Shown piece after piece: positions 5,962 to 64,000 of a stretch of DNA of 64,000 bases. The stretch comes from Candidatus Colwellbacteria bacterium (GTDB lineage Bacteria; Patescibacteriota; Minisyncoccia; UBA6257; Colwellbacteraceae), in NCBI GenBank assembly GCA_030700125.1, contig JAUYKE010000021.1, positions 2,492 to 66,491 of the forward strand. The letters run 5' to 3'. The translations under genes and the position numbers were made by a program. Numbering within the stretch: position 1 is the stretch's first letter; every line of letters begins with the position of its first letter. Below the pieces are notes generated by a model. The model saw only the letters and a list, made by a program, of their open reading frames with translations. It ran no database searches and was not told the DNA's origin.

Positions 5962-6531
5962 ATGATAGTGAGCTTATCGTCTCCTGGCTGTAAGTGCCAA
6001 GTGGGAGACTTTGTTATGTTTGTTGACCCCGCCTCCGACAGGAAGGCCGATTTAATTTTGAAAACCAAAACTGACTTGCCGATCGGCTTCCCTCTTTCGC
6101 CGGAAGTTGTCGCCGGATCCGGTGAATATGAGATCGGAGGAGTGAGAGTGAAGGGTATGAGTTTAGAGAACGAAGCTAACGGCCAAACCATAAGGACGAT
6201 TTATGCGGTTCTACTTGAAGGAGTCAAGCTCGCCTTTCTGGGGGAGCTCCAAGACGAACCTGACGAAGAATCCTTAGGTAAATTGGGGAAAGCTGATATT
6301 CTATTTCTCTCGGCTGACTCAGGTAAGCTAAAAGCCAAACAACTCACCTCCCTCATTAAGCAAATTGATCCCAAAATTATCATTCCGATTAGCGATAAAA
6401 CAGCGAAATTGCTGGCTGAAGAGTTGGGGCAGAAGGTCAAAGCGGAAGAAAAATTAGTTATCAAGAAGAAGGATTTAGATAAAGAGCAAATTGTAAGTAA
6501 ATTAGTATGGCTAAAGAGCGGGACGAAATAA
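5962..6531 (+). CDS. hypothetical protein (weak resemblance to MBL-fold hydrolase segment, lacks HxHxDH)
   Basis: ORF; start moved to internal Met to avoid overlap with S1 gene; 3' end overlaps gyrA start by 25 nt. Confidence 0.4.
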
Positions 6532-8942
6532 ACAGAGGAGGCAAAATTGAGCCGAGAGAAATTACCGCGGAGTTGCGCGAGTCCTATTTGGATTATGCGA
6601 TGTCGGTTATCGTCGGTCGCGCCTTGCCCGACGTTCGAGACGGCCTAAAACCGGTTCACCGCCGGATTTTATGGGCAATGCAGGAGCTGGGATTAACTGC
6701 CGGCAGCAAATTTATGAAGTCCGCAAGAGTGGTTGGTGAAACTATGGGTAAATTCCATCCGCACGGGGATGCGGCGGTCTACGACGCCTTGGTAAGAATG
6801 GCCCAGCCGTTCTCATTACGTTATCCGCTTATTACCGGACAAGGAAATTTTGGGAGTGTTGATGGGGATGGAGCTGCGGCACAAAGGTATACCGAGGTAA
6901 AATTATCTCCAATCGCCGAAGAGCTTTTAACCGATATTGATAAAGATACCGTTGATTTCGCCCCTAACTACGACGACTCTCGCAAAGAGCCGGTAGTAAT
7001 GCCGGCCAAATTCCCCAATCTCTTAGTGAACGGTTCCGAGGGAATTGCCGTAGGAATGGCGACTAAAATTCCGCCCCACAACCTAAGCGAGGTAATTAAC
7101 GCCAGCATCCACTTGATTGATAGTCCGAAAGCTACCGCCGAGGAGCTAATGGGGTTTGTCCAAGGACCGGACTTTCCCACCGGCGGGATAATTTACGACC
7201 GGAAGGCAATTGTCGAGGCCTACATTTCCGGCCGGGGTAGTGTCACATGCCGAGCTACGGTTGAGGTTGAAGAGAAAAGAATCGTTATTAGCGAAATTCC
7301 TTACCAGGTTAACAAATCCGAACTTATCATACGGATGGCCGAGCTTGTCCAGGAGAAGCGAATTGAAGGGATTAGGGATCTTCGAGATGAATCCGATAAA
7401 GATGGATTGCGAATTACGATTGATCTGAAGTCCGATTCCGTCCCGGAAAAAGTATTAAACCAGCTCTGGCGGCATACCGACCTCCAGAAGGACTACCATC
7501 TAAACATGGTGGCCCTAGCTGAAGGGCTCCAACCCCAGACAATGTCCATTCGGGACGTTCTCTTGGGTTTTGTTCTACACCGCAAGGAAGTCGTCACTCG
7601 CCGAACCAAGTTTGAACTAAAGCGAGCCGAAGAGCGGGCCCATATTTTAGAGGGACTAGCCAAGGCCTTATCTCAAATTGATAAAGTGATTGCCGCCATT
7701 AAAAAATCGGCTGATAGAGCCGAGGCCCACACGAATTTAATAAAGCAGTTTGATTTAAGTGACCGCCAGGCAACGGCCATATTAGAAATGCGGCTCCAAA
7801 CCTTGGCGGCTCTCGAGCGGCAAAAGATTGCGGATGAGTTAAAAGAGAAACTCCAATTAATTAAGGACTTGAAGCTTCTTTTGAAGAGTCCGGAAAAAAT
7901 TCTGGGAATCATCAAAAGAGAATTGAAAGAACTTGATAGCCGTTTTGGCGACGAGCGCCGCACCAAATTGAAGGTCGGCGCGTTGAAAGAGTTGGCGGAT
8001 GAAGACATGATTCCTCAAGAAGAGGCGATTATCACGCAGACCCACGACGGCTACATTAAGCGTCTGCCCCCCGGAACTTTCAAGCATCAGCGGCGAGGAG
8101 GCAAAGGCGTGAAAGGTGGAATCACCAATGAAGCTGATGTTTTGACGCACTTCATCGGCGCCCATACCCACGATGATATTCTCTTCTTTACCGACAAAGG
8201 ACGTGTTTTTCAAACAAAAGTCTACGAAATCCCGTCCGCTTCGCGCGTGAGCAAAGGTCAGATGATTCATAATTTCTTGGGTATTCCAGCCAACGAAAAG
8301 GTTAGCGCTATTGTAGCTTACGGCAGCGAAGAGAAGAAAAACAACCCTTATTTAGTGATTGTCACCGCCGGCGGAGTAATAAAGAAAACCGGGCTTGATA
8401 AATTTGAGAATGTCCGGCGAAGCGGCATCCTCGCCGTGAACCTTAGTAAAGGAGATGAACTGAAGTGGGCCAAGCTCGCCGGGCCCAAGGACGAGATTGT
8501 GATGACTACCGCGGCAGGCCGGGCAATCAGATTTAAGGGAGGGGACGTAAGAGCTATGGGGAGGACGGCCGGAGGTGTCAGGGGCATCACTTTGAAAAAA
8601 GACGACAGAGTCAGTTCCTTTGACTTGGTGGCACCGATGAAAGCTGCGAGGTTCCTCACGGTGATGGTAAATGGATACGCTAAGCAAACCCCGCTTAAGG
8701 AATACAAGCTTCAGCGGCGCGGCGGTCAGGGGATTTTAACCGCCAAAGTGACCAGCAAAACCGGTCAAGTAGTTTCAGCTCATGTTATAATTGAACAGAC
8801 TGAACTGTTAGCGCTTTCAGCCAAGGGATTGGTGTTGCGCACAAGCATTAAAAGTATTAGATCTGCCGGCCGAGCCACCCAAGGAGTGCGTATCATGAAG
8901 CTCGGCGCCGGCGATAAAATTATCGGAACAGTTTGTCTTTAG
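6507..8942 (+). CDS. gyrA: DNA gyrase subunit A
   Basis: N-terminus ...[33 protein letters not shown] near-identical to canonical GyrA; 811 aa with C-terminal beta-pinwheel repeats. Confidence 0.95.
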
Positions 8943-24169: not shown

Positions 24170-24182
24170 TACTTTTATTTAG

Positions 24183-24253
24183 TCGGGGCGCCGAGACTCG
24201 AACTCGAACTAAATCCTCCCAAAGGACTCGTGCTGCCATTACACTACGCCCCG
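24183..24253 (-). tRNA. tRNA-Pro (anticodon TGG)
   Basis: CGGGGCG-TA-GTGTAATGGCAGCAC-G-AGTCC-TTTGGGA-GGATT…TTCGAGTC…CGCCCCG-A. Confidence 0.8.
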
Positions 24254-24670
24254 ATACTTATATTTGTTTTTCAATAATTCCTCTAATCTACTGCTTAGCT
24301 TCAGGTAGGTGGCTTTATCGGAATATCTAATTTTACATGTTCCCATACTTTTCCCGACCTTATTACCTTGAGGTCTAACTATAGTTTTTGTAAATCTATT
24401 TTTTGGAATTCTAGTTACTTCTGACCAATAATTCTCTATGTATTCTTTGTCATCTCCTTCGTGAATTTGAAGTTGTAATTTTAAACGTGGCTCATCTATC
24501 CTGATATCGTTCCTTAAGAAATCTAAGAACAATTTTATTATGTCCGGATTTGTATTAGTAACGTCAACATTGCGTATCCAGGTGTTTTTCCACCGTTTAT
24601 CTTTATATGCTTTAGTCCCTTCTGTCCACCAAATTATTATACCTATAACTTCTCTCAGACTATATCCCAT
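24239..24670 (-). CDS. AT-rich hypothetical protein inserted within a tRNA operon (3' end overlaps tRNA-Pro by ~15 nt)
   Basis: 143 aa, K/N/I/Y-rich, composition distinct from the neighbourhood. Confidence 0.45.
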   Translation of the reverse strand: MGYSLREVIGIIIWWTEGTKAYKDKRWKNTWIRNVDVTNTNPDIIKLFLDFLRNDIRIDEPRLKLQLQIHEGDDKEYIENYWSEVTRIPKNRFTKTIVRPQGNKVGKSMGTCKIRYSDKATYLKLSSRLEELLKNKYKYRGVV

Positions 24671-58733: not shown

Positions 58734-60251
58734 ATGACGCATATTTCGGAATGGGCAAAAATTGGCAGTAAAATTACCGCACATCGTGAGCAGAAGGGTA
58801 TGACCCAAGCTGGGCTTGCCCGGCTTCTAAAAACGAGTCAAAGCGCCGTTGCCCGAATGGAGGCAGGCGAACAAAATTTCAGCACCGGGACGCTTTTAAA
58901 AATCGGCAAGATTCTTGATAAAGAGTTAATTACTCTTTCCGATGAAACAGTTAATTTTAAAGTTGAAGGCGGCCACAAGCTAAAAGGGGAGGTAAAAGTA
59001 AATACCTCAAAAAACGCCGCTGTCGCGCTGCTTTGCGCTTCGCTCCTCAACAAAAATAAAACCGTCTTAAAGCGAATGCCTCGAATTGAAGAAGTCTATC
59101 GAGTGATTGAAGTGCTCGTTAGCTTGGGTGTTTCGATTAGATGGCTTGGCAATGATGTTGAAATTATTCCGCCGAAGAAAATCAATCCGCGGCATATCAA
59201 TGTTGAAGCGGCAATGAAAACCCGGAGCGTGCTTCTTCTCTTGGGGCCGCTAATTCATTTATTGCCGGCCTTTAGAATTCCTCAACCGGGGGGGTGTAAG
59301 CTCGGCGGGAGAACTGTCCGACCCCATCTTCTTGCCCTGGAGAAACTGGGAATAAAGATTGATACCAAAGCGAATTATTACGAAGTCTTGCACAAGAGAC
59401 TTCGACCGGCGGAGATTGTGCTCTACGAATCGGGCGACACAACTACGGAAAATGTTTTAATGGCGGCCGCCAAGATAAAGGGTAAAACTGTAATCAAGTT
59501 TGCTTCGGCTAACTATATGGTCCAGGATCTTTGCGACTTCCTTACCCAATTGGGGGTAAAGATAGACGGGGTCGGGACAACTACCCTTACGGTCTATGGC
59601 ACTCCGGAAATAGACAAGCCGATTACTTACTACCCGAGCGAAGATCCGATTGAGGCGATGCTTTTCCTCTCAATCGCCGCCACCACCAACTCTTCAATAA
59701 CCATAAAGGGCTGTCCGATTGATTTTCTCGAGCTTGAACTCTTGAAGTTGGAAAAAATGGGCTTCAAATTCAAAATCTTGAGGCGCTATAAATCCGCCAA
59801 CAATTTCACTAACTTGGTAGATATCCGGACTCTCCCTTCGAAGCTCCATGCCCTGGAAGAGAAAATTTACGCCCGGCCTTTTCCGGGACTAAATATCGAT
59901 AATCTCCCTTTCTTCGTGCCGATTGCCACCCAAGCGGAAGGTCAAACTCTGATTCACGACTGGGTGTACGAAAATAGGGCCATCTATTATATGGAGCTAA
60001 ATAAGCTTGGGGCTGACATTATTCTGGCTGATCCGCACCGCATCTATGTTAATGGACCGACCAGACTAACCGGAGCTGAAATAATCTGCCCGCCGGCTCT
60101 CCGGGCAGCGGCTATTATTTTAACCGCCATGCTCGCCGCCTCCGGCACCTCGGTTTTGCGGAATGTTTATTCAATTAATCGCGGCTACGAGGATCTGGCT
60201 AACCGATTAGGTAAACTGGGAGCGCGGATTAAAACATTACGTAGTTTTTAA
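58734..60251 (+). CDS. murA: UDP-N-acetylglucosamine 1-carboxyvinyltransferase (MurA) with an N-terminal XRE-type helix-turn-helix domain fusion
   Basis: N-terminal ~65 aa GMTQAGLARLLKTSQSAVARMEAG HTH; then full MurA (KLKGEVKVNTSKNAAVALLCASLL…, active-site loop PQPGGCKLGGRTVRPH, C-term …RGYEDLANRLGKLGARI). Confidence 0.8.
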   Translation: MTHISEWAKIGSKITAHREQKGMTQAGLARLLKTSQSAVARMEAGEQNFSTGTLLKIGKILDKELITLSDETVNFKVEGGHKLKGEVKVNTSKNAAVALLCASLLNKNKTVLKRMPRIEEVYRVIEVLVSLGVSIRWLGNDVEIIPPKKINPRHINVEAAMKTRSVLLLLGPLIHLLPAFRIPQPGGCKLGGRTVRPHLLALEKLGIKIDTKANYYEVLHKRLRPAEIVLYESGDTTTENVLMAAAKIKGKTVIKFASANYMVQDLCDFLTQLGVKIDGVGTTTLTVYGTPEIDKPITYYPSEDPIEAMLFLSIAATTNSSITIKGCPIDFLELELLKLEKMGFKFKILRRYKSANNFTNLVDIRTLPSKLHALEEKIYARPFPGLNIDNLPFFVPIATQAEGQTLIHDWVYENRAIYYMELNKLGADIILADPHRIYVNGPTRLTGAEIICPPALRAAAIILTAMLAASGTSVLRNVYSINRGYEDLANRLGKLGARIKTLRSF

Positions 60252-61907: not shown

Positions 61908-62609
61908 ATGGCTAAAATTCTCTCGCCCCGACACGTTGCTATTATCCCTGACGGAAATCGGCGGTGGGCGAAGCGCCGCGGGTTTCCCAGCTGGAGGGGA
62001 CACTTCGAAGGCGCTAAGCGGATGGAAGAAATTGCCCGAGCGGCAGTTGATCTAGATATCAAATACTTCACCCTTTGGGGCGGATCTTATGACAACCTCA
62101 CTAAGCGGTCAAAAGGGGAAATTATTGTTTTAAACCGGGTCTACAAAGAGCTGGTGCGAAAACTGCTTAAGGATAAAACTATCCATGAAAATAAGGTAAG
62201 AGTGAGGTTTCTAGGTGAGTGGCCGAAGTTATTGGATAAAGGAGTGGTTGAAGCCATTAAGAGAGCCGAGAGAGAAACTGCCCGATACACAGGTTATGAA
62301 CACTCATATCTTATTGGATATAACGGGGATCGGGAGATGTTGGATGCCATGAATCGGCTTTTAAAAACCGGCCACGGGCGGGTCACCGCTCCACTATTAA
62401 AATCATATCTCTGGACTGCTGATCTGCCACCGGTTGACCTAGTAATAAGGACTGGCGGCGAGCCTCATCTTAGTAATGGCTTTATGATGTGGGATGCGAG
62501 AGATGCCCAGCTCTATTTTACCGATAAGTTTTGGCCTGACTTTACCAAGAAAGAGCTCATCCTCGCACTTGAAGATTATTCTCATCGGGAACGGAGGTTT
62601 GGCCGGTAG
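61908..62609 (+). CDS. uppS: undecaprenyl diphosphate synthase (cis-isoprenyl transferase)
   Basis: HVAIIPDGNRRWAKRRG… and C-terminal RFG motif. Confidence 0.9.
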   Translation: MAKILSPRHVAIIPDGNRRWAKRRGFPSWRGHFEGAKRMEEIARAAVDLDIKYFTLWGGSYDNLTKRSKGEIIVLNRVYKELVRKLLKDKTIHENKVRVRFLGEWPKLLDKGVVEAIKRAERETARYTGYEHSYLIGYNGDREMLDAMNRLLKTGHGRVTAPLLKSYLWTADLPPVDLVIRTGGEPHLSNGFMMWDARDAQLYFTDKFWPDFTKKELILALEDYSHRERRFGR

Positions 62610-62698
62610 AATTTCATGGGGAAATAGTGTGGAAATCATTCGGAAATTTCCGAATTAATTTCCGAATGAGGTTTTATGGGACGATCGGGTTCTTGGCG

Positions 62699-62870
62699 AC
62701 TAAAAACCCGATCGTCGCATAGATACTAGCTTTTTGGAAATCTTGTGAAACATTGACGAACCTTGTGAAACATCGTGAAAATTGCAAAACCCGATCGTGG
62801 CTTAAATACTAGAGATTTGACAATGTATTCTAAAAAGGGTGTTTTGTGAAACAATGCTTGACTGTTAAAC
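62699..62870. repeat. repeat-dense region: two copies of AAAACCCGATCGTnGCnTAnATACTAG (first within a 12-bp-stem hairpin) interleaved with at least three CTTGTGAAACA iterons plus degenerate TTAAACAATG copies
   Basis: Seen directly; a fourth CTTGTGAAACA copy in inverted orientation lies at ~63341-63351 on the other side of the LAGLIDADG-like ORF. Confidence 0.6.
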
Positions 62871-63329
62871 AATGAATTTTTTAAACAATCCGCCTCGGCA
62901 GAGCTCCTTCCTAAAATAGCCAGATTTGTGGAGACGGTAGAGAAGTTTATAGCTTTCGGGCACAAACGGATCAGTCTCTATCCTTTCTAGCCACTCACTA
63001 AATTGCTCTGCTCTGGCACCTATCAACCTGTCGTAAAATAAAGGGATAATTATATTTTTTAGTGATCCGAGCTCCCTAATTATTAAAATTGCGACCGGCC
63101 TTCTCTTTGCTTTATCTTTTCCGGGGTAGTGATAAATATAGATTTTATTTTTTAACTTGAGCTTATTTCTAATTGCCTTGAGTAGCTCTTCATCTTCGGC
63201 CGGCATTCTTAGCTGAAATGATGGAATTCTTCTTGGTTTCAAACTGCCAAGGTTACTGGAGGTTGTAAAAGTAAATGTCCCTGTGCCCTGGACTAGCCCC
63301 CGGATGTAGTCATAGCTGATGTTTGTCAT
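62865..63329 (-). CDS. LAGLIDADG-family homing-endonuclease-like protein (single-motif type; motif reads IRGLVQGTG, second acidic residue not conserved)
   Basis: 154 aa AT-rich; N-terminal LAGLIDADG-like helix followed by pattern consistent with the I-CreI-like fold. Confidence 0.5.
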   Translation of the reverse strand: MTNISYDYIRGLVQGTGTFTFTTSSNLGSLKPRRIPSFQLRMPAEDEELLKAIRNKLKLKNKIYIYHYPGKDKAKRRPVAILIIRELGSLKNIIIPLFYDRLIGARAEQFSEWLERIETDPFVPESYKLLYRLHKSGYFRKELCRGGLFKKFIV

Positions 63330-63492
63330 AGTTGTTTCACAAGCAACTCGATATGACGTTTACCTGGTAAACACTTTAATTATACCAAATTGTGGATAAA
63401 TTGTTAAGAATTAGGTAGTAGCCCGCCTAAGGTGGATCACTGCCCGGTGTAAACAAAATCAACCCATAAATGGGCTGATTGAAAACTGCGGG

Positions 63493-63522
63493 GCTGCGGG
63501 GCGCTCAAGGGCGCCCCGCAGC
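63493..63522 (-). terminator. GC hairpin (CTGCGGGGCGC-tcaag-GCGCCCCGCAG) downstream of minus-strand GC-rich ORF
   Basis: Seen directly. Confidence 0.5.
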
Positions 63523-63549
63523 AGCTCTTCTGGTCAAGGACGACTTTCC

Positions 63550-63861
63550 CTACCGTTGGCGAGGGTGGTGAAAGCCGATCTTGAACTGGGGAGGCAGATG
63601 GGGTAGGTGGGGGTGAGTCAGGTGGTCCAGAGCTTCTCGAACCCGGTGATGATGGCCGTGCGATGGGATATAGATGATGATCTTGTCACCGTACCCGTAG
63701 AAGGTATGGGTGGTGAGCTCGTGGTCACCCCGACCACGAGTTATCCCTTCCCAGACCACTTTCACGTTTTGTTTTCCTCTGTGGTCTGCATAGATCACCG
63801 CCAATTCTGCCGAAGTGGGCCTGCGGTCAGCGATAAAGTAGATTATCGTTTCCGGCGACAT
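63550..63861 (-). CDS. GC-rich hypothetical protein with His-rich C-terminus
   Basis: 103-aa ORF with downstream hairpin; an overlapping plus-strand ORF (63607-63978) is the alternative reading. Confidence 0.3.
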   Translation of the reverse strand: MSPETIIYFIADRRPTSAELAVIYADHRGKQNVKVVWEGITRGRGDHELTTHTFYGYGDKIIIYIPSHGHHHRVREALDHLTHPHLPHLPPQFKIGFHHPRQR

Positions 63862-64000
63862 ATCTCTTCCTCTCTTTTCTTTGTCTTAAGGGACGGTTCC
63901 GATCTAGTTGCAATCGGGTTGAAGCGCTATATACTGGCATGTTTCGGTCTCTTTGCGCAGATCTTGTGCCACTCGTAGCTCTGCACGGTCACAACCATAC

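Follow-up and report, generated by a model that had tools for sequence, protein, structure and literature searches.

A LAGLIDADG protein lacking its catalytic acids, a candidate domesticated DNA-binding protein in an apparently decayed parS array of Candidatus Colwellbacteria

Our analysis of a 64-kb stretch of a Candidatus Colwellbacteria genome (here called the window) concerned the spacer that follows uppS, in which a small gene for a LAGLIDADG protein lies among several classes of short repeats (Table 1). On balance, we favor the view that this gene encodes a domesticated DNA-binding LAGLIDADG protein situated in a decayed array of parS, the centromere site bound by ParB. The protein has the LAGLIDADG fold and has lost both acidic residues of its motif; its gene is under selection and retains its gene order in relatives, the neighboring repeat motif is parS in relatives, and the repeats occur independently of the gene. 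Which protein would bind which site, and with what effect, we infer from comparisons among loci, on which all mechanistic statements below rest.

A first-pass annotation of the window had described the open reading frame (ORF) as free-standing, 154 amino acids long, and LAGLIDADG-like, and this description was confirmed. The Pfam profile LAGLIDADG_1 (PF00961) matched it from profile position 2 to 99 of 102 with 25.4 bits, above the gathering score of 23.1 bits (E value, 2.7e-5), and the same profile is found in most homologs of the protein; NCBIfam gave no match for the ORF. Comparison with sequences in the PDB retrieved the LAGLIDADG chains 4z1x and 4efj (E value, 6e-5). An AlphaFold2 (AF2) model, for which 39 homologs served as input, reached a predicted local distance difference test (pLDDT) score of 92.4 and a predicted template modeling (pTM) score of 0.86 and shows the order alpha-beta-beta-alpha-beta-beta-alpha (helix 6-16, strands 17-24 and 33-43, helix 44-56, strands 63-66 and 79-84, and helix 87-98). 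When this model was compared with the PDB using Foldseek, I-OnuI, I-LtrI, I-SmaMI, and the homodimeric I-TnaI ranked best (E value, about 6e-8), and the best 50 of the 120 matches at an E value of ≤0.001 (those with E values up to about 2e-6) were LAGLIDADG enzymes. The ORF product is a genuine, single-domain member of the LAGLIDADG superfamily, and a metagenome-assembled genome of Candidatus Colwellbacteria contains the identical protein under the label "hypothetical." Neither Pfam nor the AF2 model revealed a helix-turn-helix (HTH) family match in the 154-amino-acid protein. One-domain LAGLIDADG proteins are expected to work as homodimers on palindromes of approximately 22 bp, the 22-bp duplex form here being AATTGTTTCACGTGAAACAATT, and by analogy with I-CreI and I-TnaI the window protein presumably is such a homodimer.

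The motif of the window protein reads I9-R-G-L-V-Q14-G-T16-G17, compared with V-E-G-E-G in the family consensus. The second acidic residue had already been recognized as replaced, and activity had been doubted; both points stand, with the correction that the first acidic position is lost as well (Q14 and T16). T16 aligns with the glutamate of I-SmaMI-type chains and of the family consensus, and the D or E residue that binds the catalytic metal, next to last in the LAGLIDADG motif, is therefore absent. Since this catalytic acid is missing, the protein does not qualify as an active homing endonuclease and, judged from its sequence, almost certainly cannot cut DNA. All of the approximately 16 nearest sequences likewise lack the acidic residues (QGTG, QAAG, SGGNG, etc.), distant members retain E-G-E-G, and nonacidic variants recur in the wider family (8 of 52 scorable representatives).

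We compared the window, which represents its genome by 64 kb only, with loci from relatives (labeled L001, etc.), available with flanks of 3 to 5 kb. The family is small, with 38 cluster representatives at an E value of ≤1e-30 among 1.84 billion proteins; its members are so far confined to Patescibacteria, and none was found on IMG/VR viral contigs. The genome collection yielded 38 loci of the family, and nearly all of them have the gene and yraN (UPF0102; YraN Pfam E value, 4e-21) as a divergent pair. In the lineage of the window, an insertion parts the gene from yraN; in L004, this insertion contains an IS1595 transposase and GC-rich ORFs, and an insertion of this kind probably explains the GC-rich region after position 63480 of the window. 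The members of the clade without acidic residues are 60 to 88% identical to the window protein and have intact ORFs over that whole range. Those whose contigs reach far enough downstream (L001 to L004, L039, L040, and L041) share a neighborhood in which the gene is followed by uppS in some loci, by FMN_red, and then by CAP where the contig reaches that far; the L042 contig stops at the gene, leaving the upstream yraN as the sole visible neighbor.

Between the window gene and its 88%-identical ortholog, the ratio of nonsynonymous to synonymous substitution rates (dN/dS) is 0.11 at a dS of 0.59. For the other pairs, dS is at least 1.45 or saturated, and the ratios that could be computed (dS, 1.45 to 3.1) range from 0.07 to 0.24. 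Pairwise identities of the LAGLIDADG proteins follow those of the YraN proteins (Mantel r, 0.45; 0 of 2,000 permutations as high), with means of 48% and 51%, respectively. Taken together, these comparisons indicate that the gene is vertically inherited at a fixed position under purifying selection and is neither an active nor a freshly decaying selfish gene. Because vertical inheritance, position, and purifying selection have persisted despite the lost acidic residues, we regard the gene product as a putative domesticated DNA-binding derivative.

The first-pass annotation had also reported iterons, namely, three direct copies of CTTGTGAAACA on one side of the ORF and an inverted copy on the other. 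The inverted copy (63333-63343, minus strand) and two of the direct copies (62742-62752 and 62762-62772, plus strand) are exact, and the third direct copy (62843-62853) carries one mismatch (TTTGTGAAACA). Elsewhere in the 64 kb there is one further match with one mismatch, shuffled sequences contained a mean of 1.19 matches, and none of 100 shuffles reached 5; rather than being dispersed, the motif clusters only at this locus within the window. The spacing of the 8- to 11-bp repeat units is 20 and 81 bp. The consensus of parS is TGTTTCAC-GTGAAACA, that is, the 16-mer TGTTTCACGTGAAACA (bioRxiv 10.1101/724823), and on comparison the CTTGTGAAACA "iterons" are evidently half-sites of this palindrome, divided between TGTTTCAC and GTGAAACA. 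A perfect TGTTTCACGTGAAACA lies beside the gene in the syntenic L001 to L004, on its downstream side, and in L009, and the perfect 16-mer is also present in L048, L070, and L101. Judged by the alignments, the window sites are the remnant of a parS array next to yraN, which some relatives still have in intact form.

The remnant is not drifting freely. All four of the relatives compared keep the second half-site (62765-62772), and all but L041, which has a replacement, keep the first (62745-62752), although most of the pairs used for this and for the spacer comparison are saturated at synonymous sites. GTGAAACA also stands directly before the start codon in L001, L005, L007, L009, L012, L039, and L040, and no fewer than eight lineages have a half-site adjoining the ATG. 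Over the 38 loci, the density of GTGAAAC at distances of up to 350 bp from family genes is approximately 50 times that of the remaining sequence (83 occurrences in 27 kb versus 17 in 289 kb).

Loci that lack the LAGLIDADG gene make clear that the sites exist without it. A scan of metagenomes with YraN yielded 80 loci, 63 of which extend at least 700 bp upstream of yraN, and the LAGLIDADG gene is present in 16 of these 63. Among the gene-free loci, L101 carries seven perfect parS sites and one copy with a single mismatch beside yraN, and L070 carries five perfect sites and four within two mismatches; both arrays occupy AT-rich spacers of 550 to 700 bp that continue into ATTCGGCAATTGCCGAAT-type repeats. 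Over the gene-free loci as a whole, 38 parS-like 16-mers (≤2 mismatches) fall in the 50.7 kb formed by 1 kb upstream of each yraN versus 14 in 194 kb, an approximately 10-fold difference. In gene-free L055, the order is yraN, parS-like palindromes, a motif of the 27-bp type described below, and half-sites; next come the same type of motif as an inverted repeat, then a TTGCCGAT array, and finally uppS. A tblastn search of this locus found no LAGLIDADG remnant. In place of the gene, L055 has a GC-rich noncoding stretch of approximately 400 bp (about positions 2530 to 2930) with no Rfam match at E values up to 0.1. We also observed parS-like 16-mers with one or two mismatches inside the yraN coding sequence, at approximately +160 to +210, in the LAGLIDADG-free loci L105, L119, L120, L121, and L092.

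When loci were classed by the catalytic position of the motif (E/D kept, E/D lost, or gene absent), a 16-mer within two mismatches of parS was found in 0 of 43 loci with an intact motif (284 kb in total) versus 21 of 61 LAGLIDADG-free loci (Fisher P, 2.7e-6, for loci that are not independent of each other). Two lineages in which the enzyme has lost its acids, L001 to L004 and L009, have two perfect parS sites each. In loci with an intact enzyme, half-sites remain but are respaced, everted, or paired with a different half. The three classes interleave on a YraN-based clustering, albeit a crude tree, and the pattern is therefore not simply one of clade versus clade. These data suggest that the family and intact parS sites are mutually exclusive. 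This opens the way for a tentative hypothesis, which we consider possible but well short of probable, that the family consists of homodimeric LAGLIDADG homing endonucleases that target parS itself, and the ancestors of the window protein may have been such enzymes. Targeting of parS would explain why the genes lie inside yraN-adjacent parS arrays with a parS site or half-site fused to the start codon, why they are distributed patchily among close yraN lineages, why loci with an intact motif lack parS-like 16-mers and have respaced, everted, or asymmetric half-sites that look as if they had escaped from cleavage, and why perfect parS sites can be kept where the gene is absent or dead. In this scenario, the Q14/T16 protein would be a retained noncutter. 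It might occupy parS-like sites or shield them, act as a poison to active subunits that enter the cell, or regulate the locus.

Half-sites are not the only conserved components of the spacer. The 27-bp motif, reported earlier as duplicated, is indeed present in exactly two copies (62703-62729 and 62786-62812) where none would be expected. Its family-wide form, TAGGTTTTATGCGATTATCGGGTTTTT, occurs in many loci, often as a long inverted repeat, and its core, ATCGGGTTTT, has 13 matches near family genes versus 0 in 234 kb elsewhere. The hairpin with a 12-bp stem that had been noted around one motif copy corresponds to an inverted repeat with arms of 20 nt (62675-62694 and 62702-62721) that are 90% complementary and share a perfect 12-bp core. 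Among its 46 predicted pairs, only 1 shows a compensatory change, the covariation term is +4.08, and substitutions break pairs; because the substitutions are not compensatory, the inverted repeat points to an element that acts at the DNA level rather than as RNA. The palindromes at 62636-62669 correspond to the ATTCGGCAATTGCCGAAT and TTGCCGNAT arrays of relatives. Whether or not the LAGLIDADG gene is present, these arrays always occupy the distal end of the spacer beside yraN (window, L101, L070, L058, L080, L072, L015, and L006). Relatives show almost no variation in the noncoding blocks, despite a saturated dS in most pairs. By comparison of loci, the TTCCGAA palindromes, the 27-bp motif, and the inverted repeat of this motif are conserved modules of the same region that are independent of the LAGLIDADG gene. 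A dif/Xer site is an unlikely identity for the 27-bp motif, as the orientation of its arms does not seem to fit the dif consensus.

On the other side of the gene, the 15-bp palindrome near the predicted transcription start is conserved in L039, L040, and L001, and its equivalent in L041 is TTCAC-A-GTGAA, with both halves changed. Such a two-sided change is the behavior expected if a symmetric dimer reads the site. Considering these data, we propose a model in which a dimer of the LAGLIDADG protein would bind the parS-like palindrome or half-sites around its own gene. With the palindrome at the predicted transcription start and a half-site touching the ATG, binding would lead to autoregulation, and the dimer may also occupy the remaining half-sites downstream. 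Lacking its acidic residues, the protein should bind these sites rather than cut them.

Several points weigh against this model. The half-sites could be read by ParB or another factor instead of the LAGLIDADG protein, and inspection by eye revealed no clean covariation between the DNA-contacting beta-strand residues and the local repeat variant. No 16-mer within three mismatches of the full parS site (TGTTNCACGTGAAACA) occurs in the 64-kb window, which is why its copies are read as half-sites or decayed sites, and these may no longer work as a centromere. Furthermore, a motif search of the 64-kb window and of 122 loci with their flanks of 3 to 5 kb found no sign of parB. A Soj-like ParA gene was observed in L026 (42-845, minus strand), approximately 4 kb from a divergent family member that has TGTTTCAC-A-GTGAAACA upstream. 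Literature searches for parS or ParB in the candidate phyla radiation (CPR) or Parcubacteria returned nothing relevant, nor did we find a publication that connects LAGLIDADG genes with yraN or with parS arrays.

Among the alternatives, it is possible, though we consider it unlikely, that the gene is a passenger, that is, an inactivated and functionless homing-endonuclease gene that arrived long ago in a gene-poor, repeat-rich spacer whose repeats serve only ParB or host factors. Homing endonucleases ordinarily pass through a phase in which catalytic residues are lost, the repeats also occur in gene-free loci, and the gene is present in only a quarter or so of the yraN loci with enough flank (the 16 of 63 given above). 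However, a dN/dS of 0.11 with ORFs intact over 60 to 88% identity, a divergence rate resembling that of the neighboring yraN, a strong predicted promoter of its own, and the half-site at the ATG in so many lineages are at odds with such a gene, and the strict anticorrelation between intact motif and parS would not be expected from a pure passenger. A small mobile or selfish element of approximately 650 bp delimited by the inverted CTTGTGAAACA copies, as the first-pass annotation had proposed, is highly improbable. A perfect 11-bp inverted repeat does bracket the ORF, and the gene is patchily distributed among yraN loci, but the supposed ends are apparently parS half-sites that also occur in gene-free arrays, and the locus contains no transposase. 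The gene moreover keeps its place beside (uppS)-FMN_red-CAP across 60 to 88% identity under purifying selection, no relatives lie on viral contigs, and the comparison with an empty site did not support mobility, since L055, with yraN and uppS and without the gene, retains the flanking modules. A transposon or a structure like a miniature inverted-repeat transposable element was likewise rejected, the motif being restricted to the locus in 64 kb and the gene-free L055 retaining the repeats. Two further candidates were dismissed: a group I intron or other RNA host of the ORF, for which Rfam and ARAGORN gave no support at the locus, and a TIGR-Tas array, a type known from Parcubacteria in which regular dual repeats lie next to a Nop-domain tas gene, whereas the locus has irregular repeats and no such gene in its vicinity (PMC12045711).

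That the spacer is a chromosomal replication origin or origin-like iteron array, with the repeats as initiator sites and the gene as a mere resident, seems improbable to us. The region is AT-rich, as the first-pass annotation had stated for the DNA between uppS and the GC-rich part (GC content of 0.36 to 0.42 versus 0.55 to 0.60 after position 63400), and combines short repeats of several classes, some direct and some inverted; it also contains a perfect DnaA box at 63391-63399, TTWTNCACA is approximately 16-fold enriched downstream of family genes, and some loci combine a divergent gene orientation with a skew switch. Nevertheless, there are only one or two DnaA-box matches per locus, many of them inside other palindromes, and in the window such boxes are not enriched (11 versus 10.5 expected at ≤1 mismatch). 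The sign of the left/right GC skew is inconsistent among 20 loci, and in the window the cumulative skew, whose weak minimum at approximately 15.7 kb lies about 47 kb from the locus, rises steadily over those 47 kb and on to the window end, the opposite of what an origin would show. Neither dnaA nor parB motifs were seen in the window, and inspection of ORF starts revealed no Rep-like gene. An iteron-type origin in particular was rejected: the units measure 8 to 11 bp instead of a regular 17 to 22 bp, the window has no DnaA or Rep signature, and the boxes are few. Of the earlier suggestion of an origin-like iteron array, then, the repeat array stands, but it appears to be composed of parS half-sites and conserved modules and not of Rep-type iterons, and the case for an origin is weak. 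Quite improbable, too, is a structured RNA (a small RNA, 3' untranslated region, or attenuator) in which 62673-62694 would pair alternatively with 62702-62721 or 62788-62806. The length and stability of the hairpin, one arm of which has a choice of two partners, strong sequence conservation, and a promoter-like site on the plus strand at 62753-62782 are consistent with such an RNA, but the pair-breaking substitutions described above are not, and many relatives have the motif singly, with no partner to pair with. Nor did Rfam contribute a match beyond noise: apart from tRNAs elsewhere, no intron or other RNA family was found around the ORF, with the whole window searched at the gathering level and 62300-64000 at E values up to 10, and ARAGORN predicted no tRNA near the locus.

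We also made several observations on the surroundings. The GC-rich stretch 63480-64000 contains ORFs at 63550-63861 (minus strand) and 63607-63978 (plus strand) with no Pfam or NCBIfam match. On the uppS side, 58734-60251 (plus strand) encodes an enzyme of the MurA/EPSP-synthase family with an N-terminal Cro/C1-type HTH (HTH_3 E value, 3.5e-10; EPSP_synthase E value, 1.7e-49), a fusion also found in L001 to L003. The window as a whole contains 15 tRNA genes in 64 kb, several of them tightly paired, and gyrA (6507-8942); it contains neither dnaA nor dnaN. A second LAGLIDADG protein in the window was considered for the 143-amino-acid ORF at 24239-24670 (minus strand), which resembles one by eye, and rejected, as Pfam and the PDB were unsupportive. 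This ORF lies in a tRNA cluster and overlaps the 3' side of tRNA-Pro (24182-24253).

Table 1. Coordinates of the LAGLIDADG gene, the repeats around it, and the features that border the locus
Feature	Position in window	Strand	Basis or remark
uppS	61908-62609	+	Pfam; also the downstream neighbor of the gene in other Colwellbacteria loci
TCATTCGGAAATTTCCGAATTAATTTCCGAATGA palindromic repeats (TTCCGAA palindromes; TTCGGAAATTTCCGAA in the window)	62636-62669	.	Terminator-like after uppS by scan
Long inverted repeat of two 27-bp-family copies (left arm, TGAGGTTTTATGGGACGATCGGGTT; right arm, 62703-62729)	62668-62729	.	Repeat search and alignment
Two exact half-sites CTTGTGAAACA, then the variant GTGAAAAT (62775-62782)	62742-62782	+	Motif scan and repeat search
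Second copy of the 27-bp motif (AAAACCCGATCGTGGCTTAAATACTAG)	62786-62812	+	Most conserved noncoding block of the locus
Near-invariant block GAGATTTGACAA beside the second 27-bp motif	62813-62824	+	Spacer alignment
Putative decayed parS, TGTTTT-GTGAAACA, two bases short	62840-62853	+	Spacer alignment with the perfect TGTTTCACGTGAAACA of L001
Variant half-site TGTTAAACAATG overlapping the stop codon	62863-62874	+	Repeat family D2
LAGLIDADG gene (154 amino acids, one domain; NCBI Q8P66_02400)	62865-63329	-	Pfam, PDB, AF2
Half-site CTTGTGAAACA, 3 bases before the ATG	63333-63343	-	Motif scan
15-bp palindrome GTTTACC-T-GGTAAAC (GTTTACCTGGTAAAC), parS-like plus one central base	63358-63372	.	Approximately at the predicted transcription start; operator-like
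Promoter-like site of the LAGLIDADG gene (TTAACA, 17 nt, TATAAT plus upstream TG; 11/12 matches)	63379-63407	-	Promoter scan
Perfect DnaA-box 9-mer TTATCCACA in the promoter spacer	63391-63399	-	Motif search
Terminator-like hairpin closing the GC-rich upstream region, outer edge of the locus	63457-63480	-	Scan

Domesticated LAGLIDADG proteins are rare in bacteria, WhiA being the textbook case, and a second, independent example would lengthen this list. The example proposed here would be a protein of one domain, probably a dimer, that selection maintains in the ultrasmall genomes of Patescibacteria. If the parS-targeting hypothesis is true, a selfish nuclease family residing in, and incompatible with, centromere sites would represent a new kind of conflict between mobile genes and chromosome segregation, which could explain the diversified parS-like sequences of these lineages.

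WhiA itself is a monomer with two LAGLIDADG domains and a C-terminal HTH that reads a short, nonpalindromic motif. It is presented as a bacterial DNA-binding regulator that derives from a LAGLIDADG endonuclease and lacks catalysis (PMC3781837). The parallel would be a LAGLIDADG scaffold turned DNA-binding protein, binding by the window protein being a prediction; unlike WhiA, the window protein consists of a single domain without an HTH, and Pfam shows no relationship between the two. Homodimers of the I-CreI and I-TnaI type come closest in architecture, with one LAGLIDADG helix and an alpha-beta-beta-alpha-beta-beta-alpha core in approximately 150 amino acids, and the palindromes of relatives, at 20 to 24 bp, have the size that such dimers recognize. 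In contrast to these enzymes, the window gene encodes no catalytic acid and lies outside any intron or intein; its position is fixed, and purifying selection acts on it. I-TevI, an autorepressing enzyme, resembles the predicted arrangement, in which the promoter and start codon of a gene for a protein of a nuclease family carry a palindromic site like an operator, but I-TevI is a GIY-YIG enzyme and is catalytically active. LAGLIDADG homing endonucleases are also reported from insertions of CPR rRNA genes, inside the genes or their introns and mobile (PMC11270868). These share the phylum and the enzyme superfamily with the window family, whose genes, however, stand alone next to yraN and are surrounded by neither rRNA nor tRNA genes nor a group I intron. 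Finally, the locus resembles ParB-parS systems in that its repeat core, GTGAAACA, is half of parS and relatives carry arrays of the perfect 16-mer at the same position; it differs in that the window holds only half-sites and one copy with a 2-bp deletion, and in that half-sites among relatives are spaced by 0 to 8 bp, some of them everted, which is not a known target of a ParB dimer.

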